Of a stretch of 64,000 nucleotides of DNA, positions 1,581 through 24,808 are shown in pieces. This DNA is from an uncultured Candidatus Saccharibacteria bacterium (lineage in GTDB: Bacteria > Patescibacteriota > Minisyncoccia > Phycocordibacterales > G965230995). Every line of letters begins with the position of its first letter. Positions within the stretch are counted from its first letter, which is position 1. The stretch is from the NCBI GenBank assembly GCA_965230995.1, contig OZ246398.1, positions 400,213-464,212 of the forward strand. Direction: 5' to 3'. The notes under the pieces are model-generated. The model searched no databases and was not told the DNA's origin. It was given only the letters and a program-made list of their open reading frames with translations. The position numbers and the translations under genes are program-made.

Positions 1581-2150
1581 TTAATAAATTATTTTCTTTA
1601 TAATGGCCAAACCCTCCTCGATCTTTCTCACACCATCCTCGACTGAGGTATTTGGCGTGTGATCGCTGGCAAGGGCGACAAGCTCGTCCAGTATCCGCTT
1701 GTCGGTTGCGGGACAATTTGGTTTCTTTGAGTAAATCTCAAAATGGCCAACAATGTGATCACGGTCGACCGGTATTTGCCATCGTTGGCAGATCTCGTGG
1801 ATCATCATTGCGCTCGCTTGTTTCATTGCCTCCGTCCAGATGTCATCAGGCTTTCCCTCGTGTTCAATCCCGATCGTATAAAGGTTTGGATTAATCTTTT
1901 GCTTTATTAGCTTCCAAGTTGGTGCATCTACACGGCCAGCGTGCCAAGCAGTATCTTCCTCTCGAACATATTGATGCACCTCACCATTCTTTCCAATGCC
2001 GTAATGAGCACTTACTTGCGATGCTGGATTTGTAAACCACGCATCAGTTCCGGCCAGCGTGCCGTCCATAATGTGAATGACAATTGCTTCCGGTCGATAA
2101 CTATTGCGACCAGCCCAGAAGTTTGGAGACTTTTTTTGAATAATGTTCAT
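1581..2150 (-). CDS. N-acetylmuramoyl-L-alanine amidase (Amidase_2/PGRP family, T7-lysozyme-like endolysin)
   Basis: Motifs AHYGIGKNGEVHQYV and AWHAG, with the H...H...C zinc amidase layout. Lies between the holin-like genes. Confidence 0.75.
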   Translation of the reverse strand: MNIIQKKSPNFWAGRNSYRPEAIVIHIMDGTLAGTDAWFTNPASQVSAHYGIGKNGEVHQYVREEDTAWHAGRVDAPTWKLIKQKINPNLYTIGIEHEGKPDDIWTEAMKQASAMMIHEICQRWQIPVDRDHIVGHFEIYSKKPNCPATDKRILDELVALASDHTPNTSVEDGVRKIEEGLAIIKKIIY

Positions 2151-2154: not shown

Positions 2155-2400
2155 TTATTTATTTACTGTTATTAATAAATTGATCAGGGCGGTTATCAGA
2201 CCTCCCACTGATGCAGTTGCTAAAATCCAAAAGAAACGCTTGAGCCAGTCGACATCAGTCCCGACTTTCGTCACATCCTCTTGCAAGTGAACAAGATGGT
2301 TGTCTTTGATTTCGTTTACAGTTTTCTCGACTCGATCAAGTCGTTCATCTTGTATTTGGTTTTGGTATTCTGTTTTATCCATATTTTTATTTCGGGACAT
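2155..2400 (-). CDS. Holin-like protein (N-terminal coiled coil, C-terminal TM helix)
   Basis: 81 aa with C-terminal hydrophobic segment ILATASVGGLITALINLLI. Sits directly upstream of the endolysin. Confidence 0.4.
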   Translation of the reverse strand: MSRNKNMDKTEYQNQIQDERLDRVEKTVNEIKDNHLVHLQEDVTKVGTDVDWLKRFFWILATASVGGLITALINLLITVNK

Positions 2401-5400
2401 ATGCCCTCTGATACTGTTTTAGGAGACCTCTGTTTTGCAAAGCTTGTTCGATGTTGTCTTGCTGTTCTTGATCACGCCAAAACTTTTCTTTTTCAATGTC
2501 GACCGATTTTGCTTTTGCACCAATGAGTCCGTACAAAAACTTAACCGCACCAGATGTCTTATCATCGGTCAGTTTTCCAGCTGTAGTGTAAAATCTCCCC
2601 AACGCAGTATTTAAGAAATGGAGTTTGTAAGCATTGGCAACATAACTGGTCGATCCGTCTTTGTTTTTCTTTTCTGTTACTTCAAGCCAATCACGGAGTC
2701 CTGGAACTTTACTCATGAACGGATAGACATTGTTATTCGCTTCTATCGATTCACCGGTGAAGAGGTTTTGTCCGGTTCCGGCTTCTATTGGATATTTAAG
2801 GAGTGGAGACAATTCGCCAATAAAGCTGGCCAGAGTTCTTTGTGGGCTTCCTTTATATAGTCTGTTCACATCCTCAACCGGCAACCCTAAGCCATAGAGG
2901 TATTGTGAGAATCCGCCTTTTTCGCCAAGTCTGATCGGCAAACCCTCTCTCATATATGGAGGTAAGATTGGAAATTCCTCTTTTGCTTTTTCTTTATCTG
3001 ATTGCAACCCTTGAACGGCTTTCCCGATTCCAGCATATTTGCCCGGCTGTTTTACCATTTGTTCAAGTTGAAGTGGAATATTGCCCCGAGTCCATTTGTA
3101 GAATGGCAATAAACGCTTCATGATATTCTGTTCGAATGGTGCTAACGATTCCGGTGCATAGTCGAAGTGGAATTGGAACACGGCTTTGGCCGCCTGTTCG
3201 GGTGCATCGCCCTTGATTAAGCGGTCAACAAATAAAGGCAAACGGAGTCTGTTTTCCACGATCTCCATAGCTTTTTTGGGAGTATCCATCAGTTTTGCCA
3301 CTGGACCTTTTCCAATATCTTTTTCGACTTCTTTCATCACATCCAAATAACCGGGCTGTCCCACGACTCCGAGTCTGTTGGCAATATCTCGTATTTGACC
3401 GTAAGTGTATTTAGTCCCAAGTTGCGTGGTTATTGCACCCTCGGCTCCTCTGGCAATTTGATCAGCTTGCAAGTATCGAGTCGGGCTTTTTACTCCAGCA
3501 ATCCAGTTATTGAAAATTCCACCAATTGAGTTTCTTGTATGGAAAGCTGGAAACCATCCAGTGACTGAACCTTTCCAAAAATTCAAAACCTTATCATAAA
3601 GACCGAGAAACTTTTTCGTTGCTTCCTCGTTGGTTAGAACTTTATAAGTGTCATCAACATGCTTTACAATCTGTTCAGGCAAAAGCGTTCCTTTGAGTTG
3701 TGGCACTGAACTTTCAATATATTTGATTCCGTTTTCGTAGATTGGCTTTGTGATCTCTTTGGTTACCATTTTTCCTGTTACTGGATTTTTGATTTCTTTG
3801 GTCATCACTTCAGCTGGTCGGCCAAATTCCTTTCCGACATTGGTTAAGAAATCATAAGTATTCACAGCTTTGATGTGTTCTGCTTTTCGAGCCGCGAAAG
3901 CTTTAAATGCATCACTTTCAAACATCTGACTGACACCGTGTTGCTTTTGGAAGTATTTATTGATTCCGCCAATCGTATCGTTTAACTCTCTTTCTTTTGC
4001 AAAGGGTGTTTTTATTCGCAACGGTTTATTTAATTCACCGGTGATGTTCGCACTTCCTTTTTGCAAGAAATCACGACCCTCTGGTGTTAGGTAGTGGCGG
4101 AGATAATCCGGCAAAGTGTAGTCGAGGAGACCTCGTTCTTTTTCTTTGGTGGCAAATGTTTTGTGTTGGCCTCTTATGTAGTCAGTGATCTCGTTTATAA
4201 CTTTATTACCGGCTTGTGCAGTATCATCGTTTACTTTCATCATTCCATTCCAATATGGTTTCGGGACTTTTACAGCCGTTCCGGAATATAAGCGACTCTG
4301 ATCTTTTCTACCGGTATATAGCATCGCATCCAGTAATTCATCGCCTTGGCTTTCAGGCATGATGAAGTATTGGACTTTTCCTTTTTTGATTACGATCGGA
4401 CTTGGAAGACCTCCAGCATTTTTGAATTTCATCGAGCCGTCTTTAACTTTCACGAAAACATCAACATCATTTGGTTTTAGTTTTCCCTCCACAGAAGATC
4501 CAAACACTTTCATGTCTACGATGTTGTTTCGGTCGACTCCTTTGATATCGCCAAGATCCACGCCTTTGACCATATCTTTGATTGGTTCAAGAGCTCTCGG
4601 TAGTGGCATTTGAGGTTTAGGCACATTCTCAAGTATTTTTCCTACTTCAATTCCAGCTTTATCTCCCAGTTCTTTCTTGGCTGTTTTTCCGAGAGCCGAC
4701 ACTTCCTCAACCGCTTTGCCAACCTCTGATCTTGTTGCCTTGCTGAAGGCGGAGAATTTATCGACATACTGTTGACCAATTCCACCCGGCATGTCTTTAA
4801 TTGATTTGAATGGCACAAATGCTTTACCAGCCAAATCTTTTGCGCCTTGATATAATTTTCCGACCACTGGAGTTTTCTCTACCAGCGTATCTGCGACTTT
4901 GAATGGTGCCGTTACTACACTGCGAGGCAAGATTTGTTTACCCATGAATTTCAATCCATCTTTGGCCAAAAACTTTTCACCGCCTTCCTCGAGTACTTTT
5001 GTGGCAACGGCTTTTCGTCCGGCCTCCTCGCCAAGCTCTAAAATTGATTTTTTAAGCAGACTACTCCCAGCTTTACTCAATGCTACTTCACCAGCTTTAG
5101 TCGCCAGCTTGGCTTCCGCCCCATACCCGAATGTTATGTAAGTGGTTGGATCAAGTAAGACATCGGCGATAAAACCACCGACTGGGTTTTTAATGCCAAG
5201 AGCTTCAGATGGCAAGGTGTGTTCTTGAATTCCTTTCACAATTCCTTTTCCGCTTATAACTCCTCCCACGGCATAGGCACCGGTGTTTAAGACATGAAGA
5301 ATTTTTTGCAGAGTTGATTCTTGAGGTTGGGCATCAGAAACATCAACATTGTTTTTTAAGGCGTAATCTTTAAGTCCGGCCACCGTAGTGATGTTTGGTT

Positions 5401-5572
5401 TGGCAGAAGTTCCGGCAGAAGTGTCCGTCTCAATTTTTGTGTATCCGCCTTGAGCATTTTTACCGTACTTAACATTCCCAGCAGAAGCTGGAACAGAAGT
5501 TTTCACTGTTGCGGTTGGCACCGTGTCAGTGACTATGTATTTTCCGGTTTTTGGGTCTTTAAGATATGCCAT
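2387..5572 (-). CDS. Large virion/ejection protein (1061 aa) with an embedded minimal nucleotidyltransferase (Pol-beta-fold) motif
   Basis: Lies between the tail genes and the lysis cassette. The motif FGSSVEGKLKPNDVDVFV fits the hG[GS]-x(9-13)-DhD NTase signature. Confidence 0.5.
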   Translation of the reverse strand: MAYLKDPKTGKYIVTDTVPTATVKTSVPASAGNVKYGKNAQGGYTKIETDTSAGTSAKPNITTVAGLKDYALKNNVDVSDAQPQESTLQKILHVLNTGAYAVGGVISGKGIVKGIQEHTLPSEALGIKNPVGGFIADVLLDPTTYITFGYGAEAKLATKAGEVALSKAGSSLLKKSILELGEEAGRKAVATKVLEEGGEKFLAKDGLKFMGKQILPRSVVTAPFKVADTLVEKTPVVGKLYQGAKDLAGKAFVPFKSIKDMPGGIGQQYVDKFSAFSKATRSEVGKAVEEVSALGKTAKKELGDKAGIEVGKILENVPKPQMPLPRALEPIKDMVKGVDLGDIKGVDRNNIVDMKVFGSSVEGKLKPNDVDVFVKVKDGSMKFKNAGGLPSPIVIKKGKVQYFIMPESQGDELLDAMLYTGRKDQSRLYSGTAVKVPKPYWNGMMKVNDDTAQAGNKVINEITDYIRGQHKTFATKEKERGLLDYTLPDYLRHYLTPEGRDFLQKGSANITGELNKPLRIKTPFAKERELNDTIGGINKYFQKQHGVSQMFESDAFKAFAARKAEHIKAVNTYDFLTNVGKEFGRPAEVMTKEIKNPVTGKMVTKEITKPIYENGIKYIESSVPQLKGTLLPEQIVKHVDDTYKVLTNEEATKKFLGLYDKVLNFWKGSVTGWFPAFHTRNSIGGIFNNWIAGVKSPTRYLQADQIARGAEGAITTQLGTKYTYGQIRDIANRLGVVGQPGYLDVMKEVEKDIGKGPVAKLMDTPKKAMEIVENRLRLPLFVDRLIKGDAPEQAAKAVFQFHFDYAPESLAPFEQNIMKRLLPFYKWTRGNIPLQLEQMVKQPGKYAGIGKAVQGLQSDKEKAKEEFPILPPYMREGLPIRLGEKGGFSQYLYGLGLPVEDVNRLYKGSPQRTLASFIGELSPLLKYPIEAGTGQNLFTGESIEANNNVYPFMSKVPGLRDWLEVTEKKNKDGSTSYVANAYKLHFLNTALGRFYTTAGKLTDDKTSGAVKFLYGLIGAKAKSVDIEKEKFWRDQEQQDNIEQALQNRGLLKQYQRAYVPK

Positions 5573-5577
5573 AAGTT

Positions 5578-6906
5578 TTAATTTCCGCTACCGAAAAGAC
5601 CCTTGAAGAATCCTTTCGTTCCACCCCACACACTCTTTGCTACTCCCGGTATCTGTTTAGTGAAGACATCTTGTAAGCCAGCCCCGAATTGTTGTGCTGT
5701 TATCGGAGGAGTGTTGTCTATAATTGCTGGTGTACTATTTGCTGTCGCTGATTCCGCTTCGGCTTTTATTTGATCTCTTTTTGTGATCACTTGTCCTCGG
5801 ATACTTTGAGGCACATTACTTATTGAGAAGTTTGGATTATTTAAGAGTTCCAATGCGTAAGCTTCGACATCATTACCGTCGGTTCCTGATCCGCTTCCTG
5901 TTTTTCCTTTGAGCCCGACTACTTTATTTCCTCCCACATCAAGCACGGTTCCGGCTGGAGTATCATTGGCCAGCTGGGCAAGTTTTAAGGCACGGTCAAT
6001 AACATCTTGAGCATCTTTCTTTTCTTGTTCTTTTCCGTATTTTGCAGAGTCAATTAAATTAGCAACATCTTTTTCTGATGCACCGTATACCTGACTTAGA
6101 ATGTCACCGAGCACACTGTACTGATCTTTTTGGAATCCGAGAGTTTTCTCTGCAACAGTTAAAGGCAAGGTTGAGTCCTCATACTGCATTCCGGCCATTT
6201 CTTTTGCGGAGGCATCAGCCGTTCCCATTTCAGTCGCAAGTTTATTTCTTTCATTCAATAATTTTCTATATTCATCTATCAGTGGTTGTTTTTCGGAAGC
6301 TACAAGTCTTTGCGTTTGGCTCTCGGTTACCAAACCATTACTTGCAACAGTTCTGTCTCTGATATCTTTCTCTGAGCTGTTGATTGCTTCCTCCATTGTG
6401 GCCAATCGATCATCCAAACTTTTCAGATTTGTTTGCATCGTATCAATACCTCTCTTAGTTCTTTCTTGTTGATAGATGTCAGATTTTTTCGGCAAATTTT
6501 TGAGGGTATCGAGATAGGAAGTCTGGCTGTCTTGCATGCTTTTTAAGGTGGAATCAAGACCTAGTTCGGACCGGTATTGTTTAAGCAAAGATGTGTTAGA
6601 AGGCACTTCCGTCCCATAAAGGGTGCTTTTAGCTGACACAGAGCTTGTCCCCGGGCTCGAATTTTGGGCAACGGGCGGTGTTACGGTCGAAGAAGGTGTC
6701 ACGGTGGGACTTGGGTTCGGAACGCTTGCCTTAGGGGCAACAACGGGTGAAGTTGGTGATCCGGGCAAATTCAAGGTAGAGCCTGCGTATATCAGGTTGG
6801 CATTCTTGATGGTCGGGTTGGCTTTCATGATCGCATCAACAGTGGTGCCTTGCTGTTTGGCGATTCCCGATAATGTTTGACCTTTTTGTATGGTAATTTG
6901 AGCCAT
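5578..6906 (-). CDS. LysM-domain phage protein with a Pro/Ser/Thr linker and a coiled-coil region. Possibly a tail/ejection protein that binds peptidoglycan.
   Basis: N-terminal LysM: TIQKGQTLSGIAKQQGTTVDAIMKANPTI...NLIYAGSTLNLP. A low-complexity PSPT linker follows. Confidence 0.6.
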   Translation of the reverse strand: MAQITIQKGQTLSGIAKQQGTTVDAIMKANPTIKNANLIYAGSTLNLPGSPTSPVVAPKASVPNPSPTVTPSSTVTPPVAQNSSPGTSSVSAKSTLYGTEVPSNTSLLKQYRSELGLDSTLKSMQDSQTSYLDTLKNLPKKSDIYQQERTKRGIDTMQTNLKSLDDRLATMEEAINSSEKDIRDRTVASNGLVTESQTQRLVASEKQPLIDEYRKLLNERNKLATEMGTADASAKEMAGMQYEDSTLPLTVAEKTLGFQKDQYSVLGDILSQVYGASEKDVANLIDSAKYGKEQEKKDAQDVIDRALKLAQLANDTPAGTVLDVGGNKVVGLKGKTGSGSGTDGNDVEAYALELLNNPNFSISNVPQSIRGQVITKRDQIKAEAESATANSTPAIIDNTPPITAQQFGAGLQDVFTKQIPGVAKSVWGGTKGFFKGLFGSGN

Positions 6907-7314: not shown

Positions 7315-9006
7315 TTATTTGATTATTCTGTCCGGAACGAATACGGCCGACACATCTTTTAACCCCATATCCCACTCACCGGAATATCCGGAGTTACTCC
7401 AGACTTCGACTTTGAATTGAATTTTTTTCGACCTCGCATTGAACCGAAGCATTTTATTTACTTTGCCTTGATTCTCGTTTCCCTTAATCGTTCCAAGTCT
7501 TTTGAAAGGTGTTATCGCCACATAATCTCCGGCTTGCAGATATCCCTGTGAAGTTCCGACATAGTACAAAGTCTCATCCAAATAAATTGTTTTTGTAGCA
7601 TTGTCCATGCTTTTTATGTGCCTGATCTGTCCAGCCGCCGGACCGGCAAGAACAATCACTTCGTCACCGACCTCATACGAACTACCAAAATAAGAAACGG
7701 TAAAGTAATCCGACCCTCCACCGGTCACATATTTTGCTTGATCTCTTATATTTTGTTCGGTGATGTTGTACTTGATTTCAAATCTTGCAAAACTGCTATT
7801 AGGCATCGGTTTGAAAAAGTTCAGGATCATTTGTTTCCATCTTTTGCGAAGATATGGATCGTTATCTATTAGTGGACTAATCCAGTACGCCCCGAATTCG
7901 TAAGGTCTGAATGTTCCAGTATCGTGGTTCACATCGATAATCGACTTATTGCCATCGCTGTACATCACACGGATTGTGTTGTTGTCGACATAGAGTCCGT
8001 ACATTACCGCTAGTCCCGGAGTCACATGGTTAACCGCACCGGTTGATACTCGGTGTTTGAAATAGAGAGCATTGGTTGATGGGTTATAGCACCAAATTCC
8101 GCAATACTGATTTCGACGACTCACATCGTAAGTGTTCGATCCTTTGGCAATTAGAATTGTGCCTTGATAAACTTTCATGCAACCGGCTTTCAGTGAGATG
8201 TAGTCCTCGTGGTTCATTTCCGGGAACTTGTTAAGCTTCTCAATTCCTGAACCGTTAAAGCGACAGATCCAGCCGTCTCGTGTTAAGAAATACAAAACAT
8301 TTTTATCAACAGCACCGGCAAGACTTTGTGTTTGGGTTAATTGCAGGACACGGTTATAAGTTTGCGAATATCCATCCCAGAAAAACAAAGCTGATCCGAA
8401 TGTCGGATGGTGAGCAGAAATAACAAGATAGTCGGTGAGCGGTGCGAGCCACATAATCACATAACCGGTCGGTAGTGTGAGCTTGTTGGGATTCCAAGAG
8501 CTTGCCCCTGTATCCCATGTAGCCAAATAGTTTTTATTTCCGAAACAAATGAATTTCAAGAACTTAGTAATCGGAACATCGTCAAACGCTGTGTTCACAT
8601 TGAACGACTGCCAGTTGTCCACCCAAGTATTTTTATCAAAGCGACCGACCCAAGTACTTCCGGCATAGTACATATAATCGTCATCGGCATATAATCCGCT
8701 TCCTCCCCAGATGTTTGTGCTGTCGTGTACTTCAGTCCAGCTGTTGTAGGTATTCTCAAAAATCTTTCCGTCATCATGATTGACGCAGTAATATCGATAA
8801 TTGAAATAACACATGTAAGTCGGCTGATTCAGTGTTGGAACGCTCACACTGTCGCTCTCTTTGAAAAACTTATTTGCCACTTTCAAATATGGAGGATACT
8901 GATCAAATTCCAATCCGTTCGAAAACCAAAAAGTTCCCTCGGCATTAAGGTTTGAAATACCTTTGTGGAATTGAGATGTTTTCCAAATCTTTTTTGGTAG
9001 TGACAT
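7315..9006 (-). CDS. Phage tail/baseplate-associated protein (hypothetical, 563 aa)
   Basis: Long Trp/Tyr-rich ORF within the tail gene block. No motif recognised. Confidence 0.45.
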   Translation of the reverse strand: MSLPKKIWKTSQFHKGISNLNAEGTFWFSNGLEFDQYPPYLKVANKFFKESDSVSVPTLNQPTYMCYFNYRYYCVNHDDGKIFENTYNSWTEVHDSTNIWGGSGLYADDDYMYYAGSTWVGRFDKNTWVDNWQSFNVNTAFDDVPITKFLKFICFGNKNYLATWDTGASSWNPNKLTLPTGYVIMWLAPLTDYLVISAHHPTFGSALFFWDGYSQTYNRVLQLTQTQSLAGAVDKNVLYFLTRDGWICRFNGSGIEKLNKFPEMNHEDYISLKAGCMKVYQGTILIAKGSNTYDVSRRNQYCGIWCYNPSTNALYFKHRVSTGAVNHVTPGLAVMYGLYVDNNTIRVMYSDGNKSIIDVNHDTGTFRPYEFGAYWISPLIDNDPYLRKRWKQMILNFFKPMPNSSFARFEIKYNITEQNIRDQAKYVTGGGSDYFTVSYFGSSYEVGDEVIVLAGPAAGQIRHIKSMDNATKTIYLDETLYYVGTSQGYLQAGDYVAITPFKRLGTIKGNENQGKVNKMLRFNARSKKIQFKVEVWSNSGYSGEWDMGLKDVSAVFVPDRIIK

Positions 9007-9015: not shown

Positions 9016-9648
9016 TTATACGAGACTGCTTCTTGGAATCTCGGCTTGATCCGAAGCCGTAGACATTCTGGCTAATTCTTGATCTCGCCATTTTCCAATC
9101 ATTATTCTCTCGAAGTTATTTTCTGCCTGTCGTTCAAGCTCGGTGTCGCCCTGTTGGTTGTAGTACATTTTCTTGCCCCACTCGACATAAGCTTGGTGAT
9201 AGAGTTTTTCGACCTCCGGTTCGTCATTGTCAGATGCAAAGTCGTCTGATATTCGGACAAAGACAAACCTCATGGCACTACCGTCGACTGTTGGTGTCGC
9301 TACTGGGTAAAAATAACCGCCCAGCATATACACTGCATGGTCATCAAACTTGTCTCTGTCTCGGAAGTCGATCAGCTTAAAAGGTGTTTTATCAGTTCCG
9401 ATTCTTAGTTCGATAAACGCACGATAGTTTTCCGGTACGGGATATTTCTCTTGGTTAGCAACAGTTGTGAACGGCTGTTCGGTCTTGAGATAATCCCAAT
9501 AGTCAAAAGTCTGATCTCGATCATCTGATGGACGCCAGCTCTGCACTTTTTCATCGGCTCTTTGAACCCATGTGTTAAGTAGTGTTGAGTCAACGGTCTG
9601 ATCATCGACTTCGTTTTTTATTGCTGTTTTAATATCGCCTCTGGTCAT
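9016..9648 (-). CDS. Hypothetical phage structural protein (210 aa)
   Basis: Operon context only. Tightly packed with its neighbours. Confidence 0.4.
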   Translation of the reverse strand: MTRGDIKTAIKNEVDDQTVDSTLLNTWVQRADEKVQSWRPSDDRDQTFDYWDYLKTEQPFTTVANQEKYPVPENYRAFIELRIGTDKTPFKLIDFRDRDKFDDHAVYMLGGYFYPVATPTVDGSAMRFVFVRISDDFASDNDEPEVEKLYHQAYVEWGKKMYYNQQGDTELERQAENNFERIMIGKWRDQELARMSTASDQAEIPRSSLV

Positions 9649-9652: not shown

Positions 9653-9967
9653 TTAGATGTCAGCTCTTATTGTGATTCCGATTTGTTTATAGCCGGTCTG
9701 AATCTTTCCGTCAGGAAAAGTGACCTCGACCTCTCCCACATAAGTTCCGGCTGTGTTTGTGTCCGATGAAGTCCAGAGATATTTGCATTTACCTTTGGTG
9801 GCATCGGTTATCACGCAAGTGCTACCGCTAATTTTTACTGATCCGCTGGTGGCATCTTTCATGTAGAATTTGACCGTGCATCCAGTTAAATCTACAGGTG
9901 AACCATCTTGAGTCAGATTGAATTCCAACGGTGGCCTTGTATCGTCTTGAACAATTTTTACGCTCAT
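9653..9967 (-). CDS. Small beta-rich phage protein, possibly a fibre distal/receptor-binding or Ig-like domain protein
   Basis: 104 aa. Start overlaps the stop of the repeat fibre gene by 4 bp (9964-9967). Thr/Ser/Gly-rich. Confidence 0.4.
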   Translation of the reverse strand: MSVKIVQDDTRPPLEFNLTQDGSPVDLTGCTVKFYMKDATSGSVKISGSTCVITDATKGKCKYLWTSSDTNTAGTYVGEVEVTFPDGKIQTGYKQIGITIRADI

Positions 9968-11433
9968 AGTTTTATATCTTTATTACCTTTGCCAAGACCG
10001 ACTTCCAATTTTGCTGATTGTAGTGATTGATCTTGTTTGGCATTTTTGACCTCGATGTTTGTCCTAGCGTTAACCAATCCAAGTGACTCTCTGGCATTAA
10101 GCATCAGGACCGAAAGTTTTGCGGAAAGAAATTCAACCGCTATTTTTATACCCTCAATTATTTTCCAAATCCTGAAGCGATAAGTCCAAACTTTTGCGAT
10201 CAAACCTCGGATGTCGAATAGGTATGTCCATTGCTTTCCAGCGGTAATCAGGATGTCTAATTTGTAAGTCCACCATTTTGCGATCTTGCTTAGGATGTCC
10301 AAGATGTATGTTTCAGTTTTGGCAATCAAATTTCTAATATCCAGCACATAGGTTTCGATCTTTGTGGCAAGATTCCGGATGTCTAATTTATAAGATTCCA
10401 GCTTGGCAATAAGAACTCGAATATCCAACACATACCGCATCGCCTTGGCCGTTAAACTCCTGATATTTAAGAGATAGATTGTCTGTCTCAAAACAGTGAT
10501 CAACGAATCAAATAAATATCGGGTGTTTTTGGCAATAAGGTTTTTAATGTCGAGCAAATAACTTTCTGTTTTGCCGGCAATATTTCTTATGTCCAAGATG
10601 TAAGTCCAAGCTTTGGGTATAAGGCTTCTGATGTCGATCAAATATCTCTCGATCTTGGTGGCCAAATTTCTGATATCAAGTTTATATGTTTCTGTTTGTG
10701 TGATTGTATTCCTGATATCTGTCACATAGGCCATTAACTTTTGAGCTATGTTTCTTATGTCCCATTTGTATATCGACTGTTTGAGAACCGTAAGAAAAGA
10801 ATCAAACTTGTAGGTTATTGTTCGTCCGAGAGTGATCAGAGTGTCGAATCGGTATGCAATGCTTTTTGCAGTGATATTTCTGACATCGAGTTTATAAACT
10901 AACCCCAGCCAAGCACCGCCGATTATGTCGAACAAGTATGATGCGGTTTTATTCACCTTTAGACGAATATCTAAAACATAAGTCTCAAGTTTTGTGGCAA
11001 GATTTCTGATATCCAGTTTATAAGTGAGCAGTTTTGCAATAAGTCCGAATACATCGAGGAGATATCTTTCCGTTTTAGCAACGATGATTCTGATGTCGAA
11101 TTTGTATGTCAGACTTTTTGTGACTATTTGGAATATATCCAAAACATAAGATTCCATCTTGGCAATCAGACTCCTAACATCAAACCTGTAAGCAATCGTC
11201 TTGTTTGAAAGTCCGAAAGTATCGAGAATGTAGGTTTCTATTTTTGCTATCAGGTTCTTAATGTCGAGGATATATGTTTTGGCGTGCGAAATCGTGACGA
11301 AACTATCAAGCAAATATGTAATCTGTTTGTTTATCAATCCGAATACATCCAGCACATAACTCACGGCTTTAGCAATTGGCTTTGAGCCAGTGTTATTTAA
11401 TTGGGCTGTGTTGAATTGATAAGCGTTGAACAT
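9964..11433 (-). CDS. Tail fibre shaft protein built from about 28 tandem 14-residue repeats (Y-x-[LF]-D-[IV]-[RF]-x-[LI]-[IA]-x-K-x-x-[TS])
   Basis: Near-perfect 42-bp periodicity across about 1.2 kb of coding sequence. Sits directly beside the beta-helix tailspike gene. Confidence 0.6.
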   Translation of the reverse strand: MFNAYQFNTAQLNNTGSKPIAKAVSYVLDVFGLINKQITYLLDSFVTISHAKTYILDIKNLIAKIETYILDTFGLSNKTIAYRFDVRSLIAKMESYVLDIFQIVTKSLTYKFDIRIIVAKTERYLLDVFGLIAKLLTYKLDIRNLATKLETYVLDIRLKVNKTASYLFDIIGGAWLGLVYKLDVRNITAKSIAYRFDTLITLGRTITYKFDSFLTVLKQSIYKWDIRNIAQKLMAYVTDIRNTITQTETYKLDIRNLATKIERYLIDIRSLIPKAWTYILDIRNIAGKTESYLLDIKNLIAKNTRYLFDSLITVLRQTIYLLNIRSLTAKAMRYVLDIRVLIAKLESYKLDIRNLATKIETYVLDIRNLIAKTETYILDILSKIAKWWTYKLDILITAGKQWTYLFDIRGLIAKVWTYRFRIWKIIEGIKIAVEFLSAKLSVLMLNARESLGLVNARTNIEVKNAKQDQSLQSAKLEVGLGKGNKDIKL

Positions 11434-11437: not shown

Positions 11438-12991
11438 TTATCCGGAAGCCGGTATGTTAGTACCTCTCACTGAGTTCGTGCCTTGCATGCTTATTTGTGC
11501 GGTCACCGCATCTTTGCAAACATTGCCAATCGCTAAGTTGTAGTCATCGCTCGCACTTTGCTCTCTGATGTGATAAGCGGATTTGTTTGTTTGCGTGGCA
11601 TGTAAGTTGTTTGATGAGATCACATTGTAGGTTGAATACACTGAGCCATTGTTTGAGAGATAGATGCTGTTCGAAGTGTTGTTAGTAGTTCGCGAAGCAT
11701 TATCTATGGCATTTCCAGTTATGGTGTTGTAGGACGATCCATAAAGATATATCCCATGTCCACCGGCCCCGAAGATATGGTTTCCGCTTATAACATTGCT
11801 TACGGTCGTTCCCGAACCGTAATAAAGAGCAATGCCTTGGCTGGTTGGGTATGTGATTGTATTTCCAGTGATCACATTGTATTTGGTGGCGTTGGAACTA
11901 TTACCGACCACAATACTCCAGCTGTCGCCATAGAAGTGATTGCCAGTTACCGTTACTCTTTGAGCACCAACAAGATAAACTCCGTAGTTTGTGCTGGTGA
12001 AGACCATATTGCCTGTGAACACTTCTCGCCAGCCACTGTTCACATAAAAACCGTAGCCATTATTGCGAATGACATTGCCGGTGATTGTGTTGTAGTTGCA
12101 AGCGTTGTCGTATATTCCGTAGGAATTTGAAGCAAGCACATTGCCAACGATGCTGATGTATTGAGAGCTGGTGAATAATCCGATCGCTGTTCCGGTGTTC
12201 GAATAAATGTAGCAATTTTTTATCACGCTATCCTCAATGGCAATAACTTTCATGCAATCTTGTTTTGCACCAGTCAGCCACATGTTTTCTATCGTTAGCT
12301 TGCTGTGCTTGTACGATGCGGTTCCCCAGAGTACGAGCGGACTGTTGGCACCTGATGTTTGATTGGCTTGATTGCCGTCAATCATGAAGTCTCGAACAGT
12401 GATGTTTGTGTAGCTTACACTTCCGCCGTTTCCAATTCTCACCACATCGCCAAGATTGGCGGAATTGGCCACCCGCAAAATTGTTGATACTCCTTCACCC
12501 TCGAGAATCACATTACTTTTTAAGATTTCAACGACACCAGTCAGGTTATAAGTTCCTTTCTTGATTCTGACTATTCCGCCACCCGATGGTAGATTGCTTA
12601 TGGCTTCATTGATCTCTGTCTGATCGGCTGTGCCGTCGCAGTTGTAGTCACCAGAACCGTCGGTTGCGACAATAACTTCGGTTCTTGTTTGAAAGTCGTC
12701 AAAAAGTTTGGCTGTCACCAAAAGTTCAAGGCGTGTGCCTTGAGGCCATTGTTGGGCAGTGGTGTTTTCTTTGGCTCGTTCGATTGTGAATTGATCGGTT
12801 ACGATCGTTGTTACTTTCACAATCTCTCCCACGCTAGGATCACTTGAGTAAAGCGTGGCGTGGAATGGTGCCGATGGAAACTTCGTCCCGTCACCGGTCT
12901 GCACATTGAGGATAGTCGCACCCGAAAGCAGTGGATTGTCCGTGATTGTGCTTTTGGCGTTATTCTTTTTTGTTAAGAAAGTTTTAGCCAT
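11438..12991 (-). CDS. Tailspike / depolymerase with a right-handed parallel beta-helix (pectate-lyase-like)
   Basis: Many PbH1-type repeats such as ...ITGNVIRNNGYGFYV..., ...VTGNHFYGDSWSIVVGN..., ...ITGNTITY... and ...ISGNHIFGAGGHGIYL... Confidence 0.7.
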   Translation of the reverse strand: MAKTFLTKKNNAKSTITDNPLLSGATILNVQTGDGTKFPSAPFHATLYSSDPSVGEIVKVTTIVTDQFTIERAKENTTAQQWPQGTRLELLVTAKLFDDFQTRTEVIVATDGSGDYNCDGTADQTEINEAISNLPSGGGIVRIKKGTYNLTGVVEILKSNVILEGEGVSTILRVANSANLGDVVRIGNGGSVSYTNITVRDFMIDGNQANQTSGANSPLVLWGTASYKHSKLTIENMWLTGAKQDCMKVIAIEDSVIKNCYIYSNTGTAIGLFTSSQYISIVGNVLASNSYGIYDNACNYNTITGNVIRNNGYGFYVNSGWREVFTGNMVFTSTNYGVYLVGAQRVTVTGNHFYGDSWSIVVGNSSNATKYNVITGNTITYPTSQGIALYYGSGTTVSNVISGNHIFGAGGHGIYLYGSSYNTITGNAIDNASRTTNNTSNSIYLSNNGSVYSTYNVISSNNLHATQTNKSAYHIREQSASDDYNLAIGNVCKDAVTAQISMQGTNSVRGTNIPASG

Positions 12992-14280: not shown

Positions 14281-15504
14281 TTAGGCAACACCCTTAAGCA
14301 AAGCGTTCTTTTCGAAGTTGACTCTCTGCAAACCGACTTCGGTTTTGTACTGGTCGACTTCCTCGTCAGCATCGTTGTCTTGAATGTTGGTTTCGAGCGT
14401 GGTGTCTCGACCATTCAAAGGACAATGCTTCAAGGTTGAAAGATCCAATACGACTCCCATACCGGCATACTGATTGTCGAACATCGGATGACGGACAATG
14501 TTCAAGGTACCGAATGAAGACTGGAATTTACGGATTTCTACACCGTAGGTCTTATCGGTTGGAACGACATACATCTTGCTCGTGGCAAAGCCTTCCAAAT
14601 AACCGAGCACGGTATTGCCACAGAAGAAGTACTTCTCGCTTGAACCATACTTAAAGGCATAGTTCTGCAAAAACGATCGGAATTCGGCTTCGGTTAAGCT
14701 CGAGCTTGATTCGTCTTGCACATTTCCAGCAGAGATGATGGATTCCAAGATACCTCCGGTTAAACGGAGAGGTTTACCGTCGGGACCGGTGACTTCTTTC
14801 TTTTCACCGAACCAATATGCGCGTTCGATTTTCTTGGCTTGTTCGATACCATGTTTTGCACGCAGGTATTTCAAGTCCGCACCCGGCGTACCGGACGGAT
14901 AGAGTTTCGAAGCGTTCTCGGTTTGAGTGACACCGAATTTTGTTTTGAAGATTTGGGTATAGTTGGTGACCTTCACGAGTTTAGTCGTGTTGGAATCTCC
15001 AGACTTTGATCCTTCCTCAAAAGCAGGACCGATAACCAACAGCCAGTCGTCATCATTGATGGCGGCCGCCGCAGTGGCACCGGCTCCACGAGTTACGGTG
15101 AGAGTATTCGTGGAATAATTAACATTGGTGACTCTCATGATTTCACCGGTACGAGTGTTTTTAATCAGATCGTACTTGGAGAAAATTGAGGCACCCGGAC
15201 TATCGACAACAATGTCGGTCGCACCTACGAGGTAGCCACCGCCGTTGTTAATTCGAGCCCAGACACCAGAGTACTGATCCTCATATTCAGTAAACTCTGG
15301 GTTATAGACGACTCTTTTTTGAAGAGCCATTCCTTTGAACTTGCCTCCACCGTCACCAATCTTTCCGATTTGGGTCAAGAAAGCAGTGAGCGGTGATTCG
15401 CCTGGTTCAAGAAGGAATATTTTGTCATCGACATCGGGAATACGCTGTGATTGTTCAATCGTCAGCGTGTTTCTCGTTCCGATGAGATGGGTTGGTTCAG
15501 ACAT
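14281..15504 (-). CDS. Major capsid protein (probably HK97-fold)
   Basis: 407 aa. Follows the scaffold-like gene and sits downstream of portal and terminase. The size and position are typical for an MCP. Confidence 0.55.
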   Translation of the reverse strand: MSEPTHLIGTRNTLTIEQSQRIPDVDDKIFLLEPGESPLTAFLTQIGKIGDGGGKFKGMALQKRVVYNPEFTEYEDQYSGVWARINNGGGYLVGATDIVVDSPGASIFSKYDLIKNTRTGEIMRVTNVNYSTNTLTVTRGAGATAAAAINDDDWLLVIGPAFEEGSKSGDSNTTKLVKVTNYTQIFKTKFGVTQTENASKLYPSGTPGADLKYLRAKHGIEQAKKIERAYWFGEKKEVTGPDGKPLRLTGGILESIISAGNVQDESSSSLTEAEFRSFLQNYAFKYGSSEKYFFCGNTVLGYLEGFATSKMYVVPTDKTYGVEIRKFQSSFGTLNIVRHPMFDNQYAGMGVVLDLSTLKHCPLNGRDTTLETNIQDNDADEEVDQYKTEVGLQRVNFEKNALLKGVA

Positions 15505-16866: not shown

Positions 16867-18816
16867 TTATTGCTTTATTGCGTTTCCTAACATCGCACCC
16901 ATTTCGTTTCCGGGAAGTGACGGTGCTGGAGGTTCGTTTGGATCAATGGCAGGTGCTTCACCTGTAGGGATTGCCGAACCTTGGTCTGTCGGCACAACCG
17001 GTGGTTGTTTTTGTTCAGTGATGTAATTTGTCGGCTCCCAGCCATAATCCTCAAAAAGCTTCATCAGTATTTTGAATTTCTTGATTGAATACACGGTTCC
17101 GGTTTCCGCATCAGTTAATTCGTTCACATCCTTGATCAAACCCCAGAGTTCCAAATCTTTGGCTTTCTTAAGTTCGGAAGATGTGGCCAGTGAGGATGTT
17201 GATTCGAGGGACATCTCGTACTCATCATCGAATAATCCGTTTACGCTTTCATCGGCTTCGGTTATAAGTCCGTGTCTGGTCAAGATTGCTATGGCCTTAT
17301 CGGGCATTACGGACTTCTTTGTCCAAAATTGTTTTATCATGCTGATCCAGTGGTCGAAGTGCATGATGTAAGAATTGCGAAGCATGATCAGGAATAATTT
17401 TACGCCCTCGAGTGTTGCTTCTCGCATGAATGAGGCAACGGTCGCAGTCTCTTTTCTGTCTACACCGGCCGTGGTGGTGAATTCGTCTATACCGACTGCA
17501 ATTCTCATCGCTTCCTTGATGTGGTCTGGTTCTACAAAAGCCGAAGAGTTCACATCACCGAATTTAAGTTCTTTGACTGAGTTCGGGTCGTTAGTCCATA
17601 AGATTCCAAGTGGTTTGACTGTTATGGTTGATTGCTTGTATCCGGGCAGAGCCACCGGTGCGGCCGCAATCATGCTGTGAATTTTCATTGTCACCGCATC
17701 GACTCGTTGGTTGGTTACGGAGTTGAGAAGTTCTTGCAAATGGTCGACAAGCTTCGGAATACCAAGCCAGTAAAATGAGAATGGTCTTGGGAAGAAGCCT
17801 GTTCGGGAATAAGGTTTCTGTTCGTGATCATACGGGTTGTCACCGTCCTTGATTTCTATTGGTGTACCGTCCATTGGCAGGAACACGGTGAACCTCTCGT
17901 CAATCCAGCGTTCAACGACTTCGAATAACTTCTCGCTGGTGATTGGCATTTGGATCGGATTGTTTGGATTGCCCTCAATCGGACTCGATGCTTTTGTTGT
18001 TTCTCTCAAACTCTTTCTAAGTTGGATCAATACTTCTTTTCTCACATAGGCATAGTCGGTGATGTCACCACCGGACTTTGCCACTTCGCCGTCTGTGTTT
18101 AGGAATTGTTTCCACACGCTCTCGTTTACATCCGGATATTGGGACTTCATTTCATCCAGTGTCAGCACATAACGGTGGAATACTGGGAATGGATCGGCAA
18201 TCTTTTTCATTCTCGGATGTGGGTAGAAGTTATAAATATCTACCGGATCAAAATCTGGTCGGAATACAATCTTGGATGTTGATGTTTTAAATATCAGCTT
18301 CTTGATCTTGTCGATTATACCAATTTCTTTCTGTCTCTTTTTCTTAGTTTCTTTTCTGAGGAAGTCTTTTCCGATTGTAGTTCCACAGATAAATACTTGC
18401 AGGAAGAAGTCGATTAAGTCATCACTCATTCCAATCTCCCATAACCACAGCACAAGGTCTTTTAATGCCTCATTGTTTTTACCCTCAAGCTTGAAGTCTG
18501 GTGTTATACCGACTGTCTTTTGTAAAAAGGTTTTGATGTATGAAAAAACTTGAGGAATAAAAACATTTGATTGCCAGACTTCGCCGTCAATTGTCTTTTC
18601 TAATTGTTCGGCACGATCACCGTTGAAAGAGGAGAACAGCTTATAGCCCCGATCAAATTCGGGTTTGTAGTAGTACAGGAAGTTTTTCTTGGCTTCATCG
18701 TACTCACTGTTGAATTTTTGTAGTTCTTTTGTATTTGCCATATTTAATAAAGTTTTATTGTTCGACCTTTGTGTGCAATTGGCATTTCGCTTGGCAATTC
18801 TTTCAATCCTTGCCAT
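16867..18816 (-). CDS. Portal protein
   Basis: 649 aa, immediately downstream of TerL (the two overlap). A position-based call. Confidence 0.55.
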   Translation of the reverse strand: MARIERIAKRNANCTQRSNNKTLLNMANTKELQKFNSEYDEAKKNFLYYYKPEFDRGYKLFSSFNGDRAEQLEKTIDGEVWQSNVFIPQVFSYIKTFLQKTVGITPDFKLEGKNNEALKDLVLWLWEIGMSDDLIDFFLQVFICGTTIGKDFLRKETKKKRQKEIGIIDKIKKLIFKTSTSKIVFRPDFDPVDIYNFYPHPRMKKIADPFPVFHRYVLTLDEMKSQYPDVNESVWKQFLNTDGEVAKSGGDITDYAYVRKEVLIQLRKSLRETTKASSPIEGNPNNPIQMPITSEKLFEVVERWIDERFTVFLPMDGTPIEIKDGDNPYDHEQKPYSRTGFFPRPFSFYWLGIPKLVDHLQELLNSVTNQRVDAVTMKIHSMIAAAPVALPGYKQSTITVKPLGILWTNDPNSVKELKFGDVNSSAFVEPDHIKEAMRIAVGIDEFTTTAGVDRKETATVASFMREATLEGVKLFLIMLRNSYIMHFDHWISMIKQFWTKKSVMPDKAIAILTRHGLITEADESVNGLFDDEYEMSLESTSSLATSSELKKAKDLELWGLIKDVNELTDAETGTVYSIKKFKILMKLFEDYGWEPTNYITEQKQPPVVPTDQGSAIPTGEAPAIDPNEPPAPSLPGNEMGAMLGNAIKQ

Positions 18817-20390: not shown

Positions 20391-20766
20391 AACTTAGGCC
20401 TGTTCCATATAATCCCTTATGTTCAATCGTTTCTTTCGGGCTTCCGAGTTCTCGGTCGAGAATCTCTTTGCACGCCCGAAATTTTACGCCGTCATCGGGA
20501 CTGCCCATAAGGGCAACGAGCATTGAAGCGGCGGTCTCAACGCTCTTTTGCATGATCCATTGGGCTTGCAGTTTTCTATTTTCATTCTGTTCATCTCGGT
20601 ATTTTTCGTACTCATCCTTAAGCAATCCGCCAAAAGTGAACCATTTTTCGACAGTCGAGACCGGAGTTTGTATTTTTCTGGCAATAACAGGATAAGACTC
20701 GCCGTTATATCTAAGGCGAATCGCTTCTTGGTACTTTCCGGTTTTGATGTCGACTTTTTTGCTCAT
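20344..20766 (-). CDS. Terminase small subunit / HTH DNA-binding protein
   Basis: 140 aa with an HTH-like N-terminus. Overlaps the TerL start. Confidence 0.45.
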   Translation of the reverse strand: MSKKVDIKTGKYQEAIRLRYNGESYPVIARKIQTPVSTVEKWFTFGGLLKDEYEKYRDEQNENRKLQAQWIMQKSVETAASMLVALMGSPDDGVKFRACKEILDRELGSPKETIEHKGLYGTGLSYEQILRKARERPPDG

Positions 20767-21572
20767 TTTGTTGCGGTTTGTTGCGGAATGTTGCCGTTAA
20801 GTGTATTTATAAACTGGTTGCACACTTCGGCGATTGCCTCACTCTCGGTCATTTTTGATTGTTTTGACAGGATGTTTAATGCTTCATCTATCACGCCCTT
20901 TTGCGGATTCGTGACATTGAAACTTACAAGGGCAATGGTTTCTCTTTTGGTATTAATATCTTTGACTGCTTTTTCGACCTTTACGCCTTTTGCTTTCGCA
21001 AATGCAGTCACGGCTTTTATAAATTCATCGGCTGATGCTTCAGGGTCTTTGTCTACGATGAAATTCAAAACGACAGTATTTTCTCGCTCGGCTTTTTTGA
21101 GCTCAATCATTTTCTTTTCTATTTCATCTTTCACTAAGTCGAGAGCATCTTTGACATTGATATCTTCCTCGCCAAGATTCTGAGCAATGTCTTTGATTGA
21201 ATATCCGTTTTGGGTTAATTCGTAGGCGAGCTTGCCGAGTTTTAATTGTTGGTTTGATCCGTGAATGTTGTCGGTTAATCCATAAAGTTTGGCTTCGTCC
21301 TCATTCTTGAAATTGTGGATATTAGCTTCGATCTCGGTTTCGCCGAGTTCGCCAAGGACTTTCCAAGTATGGTAACCGCCAACGATCACATATCCGTCTT
21401 TAACTTTCATGTTCGGCCAGACGCCCACTTGTATCGGTTTGGTTTGTCCATACTTAGTTAAAGCTTTTTTCAGCGAAGTAAATTGGCGAGCGTTCATTTC
21501 GTTTGGATTCCACCAGTTCGGAACGCACTCTTTTATTTTCACTATTTTGATTTCTGTTTTTTCTTTTTTCAT
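20763..21572 (-). CDS. ParB-like nuclease (ParB N-terminal domain) protein
   Basis: ParB/Srx-like segment ...YVIVGGYHTWKVL... ParB-NTD is commonly paired with phage DNA MTases. The start overlaps the MTase stop. Confidence 0.55.
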   Translation of the reverse strand: MKKEKTEIKIVKIKECVPNWWNPNEMNARQFTSLKKALTKYGQTKPIQVGVWPNMKVKDGYVIVGGYHTWKVLGELGETEIEANIHNFKNEDEAKLYGLTDNIHGSNQQLKLGKLAYELTQNGYSIKDIAQNLGEEDINVKDALDLVKDEIEKKMIELKKAERENTVVLNFIVDKDPEASADEFIKAVTAFAKAKGVKVEKAVKDINTKRETIALVSFNVTNPQKGVIDEALNILSKQSKMTESEAIAEVCNQFINTLNGNIPQQTATK

Positions 21573-22588
21573 AAAGTTACGATCATGTATTCGATGTTAT
21601 TGCTTTGGTTTCGACCTCCGGCATTCGCCACACTCCATTTGTGATCAAGCATCTGCACTTCGGCTTTGCGGTGTTTCTGCACCATTGCCAAAAGTTTTTC
21701 CGGCTTCACTCCAATGTCCTCTTTGTTTTGTCCAAGTGAGATGACCCATTGAGGAATGTGTTTCGCCGACTCAAACATTTTTTCTAAAAATTCATCAGCA
21801 TCTTTGTTTGAGAAATCACTCGGTTTGTTATCCAGTTTTTTATTGGCGAGAATATTATCTAAAATCCCGTACTCGACTTCGTAGGCAGAAGAGCCAGGAT
21901 AAGGAGGATCAAAATAAACAACATCACCCTGAACAGTTTTAAGAAAATCAAAAACATCTTTTTGGTGTATTTCGTTGTCTTGATGGTTGTCAAAGATTCC
22001 ATGATTAATTTCATCTTTTAATTTTTCCAAAGTCATCATCGGATTTTGTATCATCCGCAAATTTTTCGGGGCGTGGGATTTGGACCGGAGAGGCCACTCC
22101 CATTTTCGAGCTTCCAAGTCCAGTGTGTCCCGGGTGTGAGTAAACTTTCCAAACTGTCGGCAAGATAGAATAAATTTGATTAATAAATGCAATAAAAGAT
22201 AGCGTTTAGTATCATTTTCCACCTTGTTGGCGGAGGCAAATGCATTATCTAAAAAGTCGGCAATCTTGGTGGTGAATACTTTCGGACAATAATTATTTTT
22301 TATAAAGCTGTCGTGTTTTGTTTCAAAAAATAGTCTGGCCAAATCCTCTGATTCAAGTTTGACAGAATTGTTGGCGATAATCGCTCGACCAATGATTACT
22401 GATCGGAAGGCGATGTCATTGCTTATAACTTTGTAGCCTTTTGCTTTTGCATAGAGACTTACTGATCCGCCTCCCAAGAATGCATCAATAAAAATTCCCT
22501 CGGTCTTTTTGATCGGCTTAAAAATGTGCTTGACCAATTTTCTTTTTCCGCCGAAGTAACTCGGCAATGCTTGAAATTTACTAAACAT
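21569..22588 (-). CDS. DNA methyltransferase, amino-MTase (N6-adenine or N4-cytosine)
   Basis: Motif I IDAFLGGGSV and motif IV VYFDPPYPGS (DPPY). Confidence 0.8.
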   Translation of the reverse strand: MFSKFQALPSYFGGKRKLVKHIFKPIKKTEGIFIDAFLGGGSVSLYAKAKGYKVISNDIAFRSVIIGRAIIANNSVKLESEDLARLFFETKHDSFIKNNYCPKVFTTKIADFLDNAFASANKVENDTKRYLLLHLLIKFILSCRQFGKFTHTRDTLDLEARKWEWPLRSKSHAPKNLRMIQNPMMTLEKLKDEINHGIFDNHQDNEIHQKDVFDFLKTVQGDVVYFDPPYPGSSAYEVEYGILDNILANKKLDNKPSDFSNKDADEFLEKMFESAKHIPQWVISLGQNKEDIGVKPEKLLAMVQKHRKAEVQMLDHKWSVANAGGRNQSNNIEYMIVTL

Positions 22589-24762: not shown

Positions 24763-24808
24763 TCACTCCTCTTTTTAAGAAAGGGTACCCTCACGGGTAC
24801 CCTTTCTC

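Follow-up and report, generated by a model that had tools for sequence, protein, structure and literature searches.

The stretch of DNA analysed here (the window: 64,000 nucleotides, positions 400,213 to 464,212 of contig OZ246398.1, assembly GCA_965230995.1, from an uncultured Candidatus Saccharibacteria bacterium) holds a prophage in a bacterial chromosome, with GyrA at 53110-55587 marking the rest as chromosome, and among the structural and late genes of that prophage lies a giant gene whose 1061-amino-acid (aa) product is the subject of this text. The open reading frame (ORF) runs from ATG to stop on the minus strand (2387..5572). The strand follows from the plus-strand translation of 2387-5572, which is full of stops, and the start codon is supported because relatives at 79-96% identity align with the ORF from residue 1 to residue 1061. 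An earlier note on this DNA had named the ORF without giving a strand and had placed it between tail genes and a lysis cassette; the ORF exists, and the gene order agrees with that placement, with the LysM and SU10-type tail genes on one side and a transmembrane (TM) protein and an amidase on the other (Table 1). It is very probable that the gene encodes a nucleotidyltransferase (NTase) module of the Pol-beta fold set in a scaffold of the polyvalent type.

The layout of the protein emerges from its comparison by BLASTP with 120 homologous proteins from metagenomes, mostly from bins of the candidate phyla radiation (CPR) or Parcubacteria. Residues 1-317 and ~450-1061 are kept throughout the set, and most orthologues are 937-952 aa long and have a linker of 12-38 aa in place of the intervening insert. 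Within the set, residues ~318-450 are common only to the closest relatives (P0001-P0004) and to P0110, P0112 and P0113, in which the insert is 50-65% identical to that of the query and the rest of the protein is distantly related or unrelated to it. Other orthologues fill the same site differently. One alternative occupant is a 188-aa insert that matches Pfam ART-PolyVal (E 1.6e-6) and PARP; P0077 is such an ART-PolyVal-like carrier, and the ~220-aa insert of P0021 and P0075, which had no match of its own in a Pfam search, aligns loosely to the insert of P0077. In P0009, P0026, P0033, P0082 and P0083 the site holds ~120 aa with the motif 'vLDGxH[RK]LaG', which recalls ParB/DdrB-ParB; a ParB-like identity found no support in Pfam or in a PDB profile search and is an unverified resemblance. 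Further orthologues have coiled-coil-like inserts at the slot. The comparison extends to a whole syntenic prophage on a 1.5-Mb contig (L017), which has the same gene order (adaptor, 563-aa ORF, LysM, small TM protein, amidase) and neighbouring genes 50-82% identical to those of the window, and its giant gene lacks the insert. Because orthologues hold nothing or other inserts at the same site, the NTase-like segment is a discrete module, seated where the conserved scaffold has a permissive slot. Its base composition shows no sign of recent acquisition (GC content 0.414 versus 0.427 in the rest of the gene, no meaningful difference). As a separate matter, one 1279-aa orthologue of the scaffold (P0091) carries an intein with a LAGLIDADG homing endonuclease at residues ~741-971, inside the conserved C-terminal region (Pfam Intein_splicing and LAGLIDADG_3).

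The real support for reading the module as an NTase is homology together with predicted structure. Searched alone, the insert finds about 45 stand-alone proteins of 67-205 aa; several carry Pfam PF18765 (Polbeta, a model that we take to derive from the work of Iyer et al.), and for one the source gives the name 'predicted nucleotidyltransferase'. When 1.84 billion representatives were searched exhaustively with HMMER, the family came to 29 clusters at 50% identity. Its stand-alone members have 90-205 aa; about half of the clusters are giant proteins (688-1799 aa) in which the module takes varied positions, among them P0170, which joins it to LPD38, and P0181, in which a PARP-like segment stands next to it. 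The query has FGSSVEGKLKPNDVDVFV at residues 357-374, where strand 1 ends in F357-G358-S359, an hG[GS] motif, and D369-V-D371-V, of the metal-binding [DE]h[DE]h type on strand 2, follows nine residues after the GS. Among aligned family members, which span 22-98% identity and include stand-alone proteins as well as domains embedded in at least four unrelated scaffolds, G and S are kept in 67 of 70, D369 in 69 of 71 and D371 in all 70, and residue 407 is E or D in 63 of 66. The family has a signature of its own: GSx9DxD ... YFIMPE ... LLxAMLYTGRKD.

Two alignments carry the link to known NTases, one of 21 family members (A1) and one broader domain alignment (A3). All 21 members of A1 match Pfam Polbeta (best 9e-6), with NTP_transf_2 matched by 20, DUF6932 by 19 and DNA_pol_B_palm by 13, and a distant member (P0180) passes the cut-offs of both NTP_transf_2 (31.9 bits, cut-off 21) and Polbeta (27.2 bits, cut-off 26.9). 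The NCBIfam matches of the family are ANT(3'')/ANT(9) and MntA (MntA_antitoxin is matched by 8 of 21 members), and the PADLOC matches are small candidate-defence NTases (PDC-S09). Compared with solved structures, the A3 profile aligns best with 2rff (E 0.0013, 85 aligned columns that include the second half of the domain), followed by AAD(9) (0.0024), AadA (0.005-0.012), HI0073 (0.026) and DrrA (0.14), with 1wot also among the matches; 11 of its 13 PDB matches are NTase-fold proteins. E407 aligns with the D-E of 'YIVLDEGE' in 2rff, a minimal NTase. The module in the giant protein departs from the canon in having no substrate-binding domain. Searched at full length, the protein found nothing relevant among PDB sequences, one weak match to a family of unknown function in PHROGs and only two distant hypothetical proteins among GenBank phages.

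Predicted structure agrees. In the full-length AlphaFold model, which has a mean predicted local distance difference test score (pLDDT) of 72.5, the block of residues 341-420 scores 64-91 and contains strands at 351-357, 370-376, 393-397 and 400-406 and a helix at 407-418; both this model and one of the domain alone show a strand-loop-strand-hairpin-helix core in the insert. The objection that the motif might sit in a disordered linker thus falls away. Low-confidence or disordered stretches are found elsewhere, in the first ~60 residues and at 146-202 of the N-terminal scaffold, followed by helices, a long one at 262-302 among them. When the domain model was compared with the PDB by Foldseek, the top matches were HalB (probability 0.87-0.91), 3c18, 2rff, ANT(4'') and AadA; for the 1061-aa model the only coherent PDB matches were ANT(4'), KNT, HalB (probability up to 0.99) and Pol X of African swine fever virus (ASFV). 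These independent lines, none decisive singly and none pointing elsewhere, converge in support of the minimal nucleotidyltransferase (MNT)/ANT branch of the Pol-beta NTase fold. The fold proposed in the earlier note is therefore supported by profile and structure searches alike: 21 of 21 members match Polbeta, P0180 does so above threshold, 2rff is matched at E 0.0013 and NTases come first in Foldseek. Its phrase 'cGAS/MNT-like' survives in its second half. A cGAS or CD-NTase identity was considered and rejected, since the insert has ~130 aa and that fold is bilobed with ~300 aa or more, and since neither PADLOC nor Foldseek gave such a match: no cyclase model of the cyclic-oligonucleotide-based anti-phage signalling system (CBASS) was among the PADLOC matches at E<=1, and no cGAS or DncV structure was among the best 50 Foldseek PDB matches listed for either model.

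The scaffold around the module can be placed by a different set of comparisons. Polyvalent proteins are multi-domain effectors that are co-injected with phage or plasmid DNA; in the survey that described them LPD38 was phage-specific, and the Pol-beta NTase occurred solely in the polyvalent proteins that conjugative elements encode (ArdC-N fusions, Firmicutes, type IV secretion system context), where such minimal NTases were predicted to transfer nucleoside monophosphates (NMPs) to proteins and were closest to the polymorphic-toxin domain NTox45 (Iyer et al., 2017; PMC5512222). Against BFVD the full-length model gives 66 matches at E<=1e-3 (best 3.7e-14), the best of them from tailed phages and annotated 'Large polyvalent protein associated domain', LPD38, ART-PolyVal-like, Zeta toxin or Helicase. 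Foldseek against the PDB gave the scaffold no credible match (karyopherin and RNA polymerase at probability <=0.06). Three proteins, P0110, P0112 and P0170, combine the NTase module with a Pfam-significant LPD38 (E 3.7e-25 in P0110). P0110 is moreover a distant homologue of the N-terminal region of the query with the same NTase at the same relative place, and its gene is followed by a small protein and then an Amidase_2 endolysin, as in the window. Podoviridae sp. ctEqG8 and Cellulosimicrobium phage DS1 each have a homologue of the C-terminal region, encoded by the giant gene that closes their structural module; among GenBank phage relatives of the scaffold, a hydrolase precedes the giant gene or an endopeptidase follows it. 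The protein thus joins an NTase insert to an LPD-type scaffold among structural and late genes, the NTase being the single recognisable enzymatic domain in this copy. Proteomics detected gp47 of phage phi24B (LPD5/LPD1/LPD38) in virions, and an ejection role was proposed for it (2026 preprint). From gene position and the phi24B gp47 proteomics, packaging of the giant protein in the virion can be inferred on good grounds, and the virion or ejection protein that the earlier note saw here is the likely identity, given also the BFVD matches to LPD38 and the LPD38 of P0110 in the same context. Where that note called an enzyme unusual for a structural module, the surprise is smaller than it supposed, since enzymatic effectors in this position are an established theme (PMC5512222).

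The module has a life outside this slot. The protein P0113 (locus L008) is a 967-aa giant ORF with the NTase that lies between PG_binding_1 proteins in a phage structural block, and a scan of IMG/VR with the A1 profile found the NTase embedded in a 1210-aa ORF (contig L025); neither giant ORF has any other BLAST-detectable similarity to the query. Free-standing copies occur in mobile-element settings, with SSB, DnaN, MerR and RepO-like genes, with TrwB and a serine recombinase, or with HicAB. In three of nine stand-alone contexts a Gp49-like (PF05973) toxin and a dnstrm_HI1420 (PF21716) antitoxin are encoded immediately upstream of the NTase on the same strand (L022, 4152-5282; L023, 3216-4580; and a JGI contig, 3300075153, with P0124), and the outer flanks differ between them; this trio of a toxin-antitoxin (TA) pair plus NTase may be a mobile three-gene cassette. 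Separately, a contig of Candidatus Jorgensenbacteria (JACRFG010000029.1; L021, 573-6672) has a SU10-like structural module in which the NTase is a separate 205-aa gene (5001-5618) that shares 23 nt with the end of a 583-aa gene.

Table 1. Features of the giant gene and its neighbours (window coordinates)
Feature	Position	Strand	Basis
1061-aa LPD38-type phage polyvalent protein (predicted virion/ejection protein)	2387..5572	minus	ORF, full-length homologues, BFVD structural matches
N-terminal scaffold region, aa 1-317	4622..5572	minus	kept in all orthologues, with or without insert
Inserted effector cassette, aa ~318-450, minimal Pol-beta-fold NTase domain	4223..4621	minus	orthologue comparison; profile and fold matches
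Catalytic signature FGSSVEGKLKPNDVDVFV, aa 357-374, G358-S359 ... D369-x-D371 (GSx9DxD)	4451..4504	minus	
E407, candidate third carboxylate or catalytic base, end of strand YFIMP-E	4352..4354	minus	conservation; alignment with 2rff
C-terminal scaffold region, aa 451-1061, most widely conserved part of the family	2390..4222	minus	
LPD38-like segment, aa 918-999 (IGELSPLLKYPIEAGTGQNLFTGESI...)	2576..2821	minus	hhalign
Portal-like gene	16867-18816	minus	
SU10-type major capsid protein	14281-15504	minus	
Beta-helix fibre	11438-12991	minus	
SU10-type adaptor	9016-9648	minus	
563-aa ORF	7315-9006	minus	
442-aa LysM-domain protein, upstream neighbour, 5 nt from the giant gene	5578..6906	minus	Pfam LysM E 1e-12
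81-aa protein with C-terminal TM segment, holin-like; overlaps the giant gene 3' end by 14 nt	2155..2400	minus	
Amidase-type endolysin of the lysis cassette	1581..2150	minus	PHROG endolysin/amidase families, E down to 5e-23
72-aa TM protein	1359-1577	minus	
Nudix hydrolase gene just downstream of the lysis cassette, window edge	570-1139	minus	PHROG nudix/MutT, E 2.5e-10

The gene that stands ahead of the giant gene possibly encodes a virion-associated protein that binds or hydrolyses the cell wall: its PHROG matches to transglycosylases and endolysins are confined to the LysM part, and in two other loci (L007 and L008) an analogous 'hydrolase' or PG_binding gene stands in the same place. Elsewhere in the structural module, a 489-aa ORF (9964-11433, minus strand) has a periodic 42-nt (14-aa) repeat in at least 12 diverged copies at 10181-11265, an indication of a repetitive fibre or coiled-coil protein. 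The prophage likely ends, and has its attachment site, at 37460-39308, where the 3' end of a serine recombinase ORF (37460-39166, plus strand) overlaps a tRNA-Ser(cga) gene (38980-39069, minus strand) and a tRNA-Glu gene follows (39234-39308). Relatives lie in CPR contigs of 0.13-1.5 Mb, and the same phage is present in IMG/VR, for example in the source of IMGVR_UViG_3300025323_000028.

The prophage also holds a complete diversity-generating retroelement (DGR; 23272-26221), with a variable repeat at 23274-23403, a template repeat at 24634-24763 and a reverse transcriptase (RVT_1) at 25172-26221. The two repeats form a 130-nt inverted repeat in which 18 of 18 mismatches fall at adenines of the 24634-24763 (plus-strand) copy, which marks it as the template repeat, upstream of RVT_1; the variable repeat sits at the 3' end of a 294-aa ORF (23272-24156, minus strand). 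Just past the 3' end of this target gene is a LOOT RNA motif (Rfam RF03000; 22954-23074, minus strand; 76.5 bits versus a gathering threshold of 46.4). A Fic/DOC-family protein, another enzyme of the AMPylation type in this prophage, is encoded at 26553-27623 (plus strand), with two 54-nt direct repeats ahead of it (26413-26466 and 26483-26536, 83% identical), and the same arm has a Dcm methylase (28231-29217), a Dam-like methylase (21569-22588), a ParB-like protein (20763-21572) and a 991-aa SMC/AAA protein (30829-33804).

Several known systems share features with the giant protein. Polyvalent proteins with LPD38 include phi24B gp47 (LPD5/LPD1/LPD38/MuF-C) and the gp69-type protein of Bcep22-like podoviruses (lytic transglycosylase, methylase, helicase, LPD3 and LPD38). 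As in these, the gene stands at the end of a podovirus structural module beside cell-wall-binding and lysis genes and sets an enzymatic effector domain in a non-enzymatic scaffold; unlike them, the protein has 1061 aa instead of 2800-4600, belongs to a CPR host and has none of the metallopeptidase, helicase and lytic transglycosylase domains that are typical of the large examples. The NTase of the polyvalent proteins described by Iyer et al. (PMC5512222) is of the same minimal four-strand, three-helix type, occurs solo as well as embedded and shares the PF18765 match found in 21 of 21 members, but here the module sits in a phage-type, LPD38-type scaffold, has its own signature and in the query falls below the PF18765 threshold. 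MntA, the antitoxin of the type VII HepT/MntA system, poly-AMPylates a tyrosine of HepT (Yao et al., 2020; PMC7641770). It resembles the module in size, fold class and the GS...DxD arrangement, and its own G-S and D-x-D are essential; the structural-genomics MNTs 2rff, HI0073 (1no5) and 1wot group with it. MntA differs in being a free antitoxin and not part of a 1061-aa structural-module protein, in its GSx10DxD spacing and in its neighbourhood, since no adjacent HEPN gene was present in the contexts examined here; all matches to MntA are below family thresholds. HalB of the Hailong system (PDB 9dbh, 9dbi and 9dbj) is the best Foldseek match of both models over the NTase core; it is, however, a tetrameric protein of ~220 aa that makes tyrosine-primed oligo-dA and has a channel partner, HalA, whereas there is no HalA-like partner here. 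Finally, the core signature is near-identical to that of AadA (FGSSVEGKLKPNDVDVFV in the query, YGSAVDGGLKPHSDIDLLV in the AadA type), but the C-terminal helical substrate domain of ANT(3'')(9)/AadA and of ANT(4')/KNT is absent and the context is unrelated.

Taken together, these data make it reasonably probable that the giant gene, part of a SU10-like podovirus prophage integrated into a CPR (Parcubacteria-type) chromosome, encodes an LPD38-type polyvalent protein which acts as an injected NMP-transferase effector of a host target. The protein would be synthesised late, enter the capsid and pass into the cell with the DNA. Its scaffold (residues 1-317 and 451-1061) has one permissive site at about residues 317-451 that would work as an effector slot, which when empty is a 12-aa linker and is otherwise filled with unrelated modules; in this lineage the occupant is very probably a minimal Pol-beta-fold NTase of ~130 aa with G358-S359, D369-x-D371 and E407. 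D369 and D371 with E407 would bind Mg2+-NTP, and an NMP, most likely AMP, would be moved to a hydroxyl of a host macromolecule straight after injection, ahead of phage gene expression. The target would most likely be a protein, as HepT is for MntA and Rab1 for DrrA, and its modification would disable a defence or toxin effector or re-tool host machinery. Catalytic activity, the nucleotide used and the target are inferred. A protein target is favoured for four reasons: the nearest sequence relatives are MNT/ANT enzymes, of which MntA poly-AMPylates a tyrosine of HepT; DrrA is among the profile matches; an ADP-ribosyltransferase of the polyvalent type is one of the other modules that the slot can hold; and Iyer et al. 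predicted the same for their NTase clade (PMC5512222).

A number of observations weigh against this reading. The query itself scores 13-16 bits against Pfam cut-offs of 21-27, and at full length it gives sub-threshold matches only to Polbeta and NTP_transf_2 (E ~0.1). The Foldseek PDB matches of both models have E values of 0.014-0.4, none below 0.01, and TM-scores below 0.5, and with a pLDDT of 67.7 the domain-only model has moderate quality. The canonical position of the third carboxylate, occupied by the Asp of 'IVLDE' in 2rff, is Pro406 in the query, with the conserved acid, E407, one residue later, and the GSx9DxD spacing departs from the GSx10DxD of MntA and AadA. The motif FGSSVEGKLKPNDVDVFV, which the earlier note took as diagnostic of the Pol-beta fold, is present as described but does not carry that weight: in 20,000 shuffles of the giant protein a loose pattern (hG[GS]x9-13Dh[DE]h) arises in 2.6% and a stricter one (GSx3Gx3-7DhDh) in 0.14%, and because of these chance rates the motif by itself is weak evidence for an NTase, suggestive and not diagnostic. 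On the side of the scaffold, Pfam LPD38 had no match in the query, and hhalign of residues 918-999 against the LPD38 regions of P0110, P0112 and P0170 reached only 73.5% probability (E 3e-5). As to function, the adjacency to Gp49/HI1420 pairs could mean a defence or TA role instead of counter-defence, and a Pfam search found no HEPN or other candidate target beside the giant gene or the nine stand-alone homologues.

The main competing explanation, which is unlikely but deserves the most attention, keeps the same architecture and delivery and has the NTase act on nucleic acids or nucleotides. The enzyme might tail or block the 3' ends of tRNA or other RNA and so stop host translation, like NTase toxins of the MenT/AbiEii type, or it might make an oligonucleotide or nucleotide signal that spoofs or saturates an immune sensor, as the oligo-dA of HalB keeps the HalA channel closed. 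HalB, the top Foldseek match of both models (probability up to 0.99), does make a protein-primed oligodeoxyadenylate, but its matches cover ~85-100 columns at 13-17% identity with E>0.01. Of 21 members 13 match DNA_pol_B_palm, the fold matches include ASFV Pol X and a CCA-adding enzyme, and the polyvalent NTases are closest to NTox45, a polymorphic-toxin domain (PMC5512222). Against this, the module is minimal, with ~100-130 aa, no nucleic-acid-binding or substrate domain can be recognised in it, and the sequence-profile matches favour MNT/ANT enzymes, which modify hydroxyls of proteins or small molecules.

A more specific form of the injected NMP-transferase, and one to be held only as a speculative idea, is an antitoxin mimic: an orphan MNT that would AMPylate, and so silence, a host RNase or a toxin-type abortive-infection effector within seconds of DNA entry. 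The scaffold would then be a plug-in vehicle for delivery, a single slot in an ejection protein of CPR phages being repeatedly reloaded with an NTase, an ART-PolyVal-like domain, other warheads or nothing. Candidate targets would be HEPN proteins, or the RelE/Gp49-type toxins that neighbour the stand-alone relatives.

Improbable, though with some evidence in its favour, is a cytoplasmic protein of the late or lysogenic stage that serves the prophage or host in a defence or TA-type role, for example superinfection exclusion, and whose gene lies in the structural module only incidentally. Stand-alone homologues lie near Gp49/HI1420 pairs (the three cases above), BrxL, HicAB, and TrwB with a recombinase; the best PADLOC matches are candidate defence proteins; and the prophage holds other conflict genes (Fic, the DGR and methylases). 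The gene is nonetheless translationally packed on the same strand between the tail/LysM genes and the lysis cassette, that position is kept across unrelated phages, and the scaffold is structurally like LPD38 polyvalent proteins, one of which is proven to be virion-associated. It is less probable still that the NTase-like segment is catalytically dead, a spacer or binding module or a chance motif. The sub-threshold Pfam scores, the frequency of the loose motif among shuffles, the proline at the canonical third acidic position and the many orthologues that function without the insert would all fit such a segment, but the near-invariance of G-S, D-x-D and E407 in ~66-70 members is unexpected for a spacer and the NTase homology covers the whole domain, not the motif alone. 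An ANT-like antibiotic NTase that detoxifies a small molecule is very improbable: the best matches by sequence and by fold do include ANT(3'')(9), ANT(9) and ANT(4'), but only their N-terminal NTase core is matched, the C-terminal helical substrate-binding domain is absent, and an insert in a giant protein of a phage structural module is a context without any pointer to antibiotic resistance.

That phage polyvalent or ejection proteins carry enzymatic effector domains is already known. Three features appear to be new: phage-type, LPD38-type scaffolds contain a distinct small NTase clade (GSx9DxD/YFIMPE/MLYTGRKD), this clade occurs in prophages of CPR bacteria, and a single-slot cassette is polymorphic among syntenic orthologues. 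Pol-beta NTase effectors are thereby extended from conjugative elements (Iyer et al., 2017) to phage-type LPD38 proteins and to the phages of CPR bacteria. Co-injected polyvalent proteins are thought to deliver a first strike on host defences, and a function has been demonstrated for very few of their domains. The locus is a clean natural experiment in this respect, in that near-identical syntenic prophages differ only in the occupant of the slot, and the same NTase also exists free-standing and in at least three to four unrelated giant phage proteins, so that its function can be tested in isolation. If the target is a toxin or an immune effector, an enzymatic, pre-loaded mechanism of anti-defence would be added to those of phages; and if the antitoxin mimic were true, it would be the first enzymatic anti-toxin counter-defence carried as virion cargo and would give a first functional insight into how the phages of CPR bacteria overcome host immunity.

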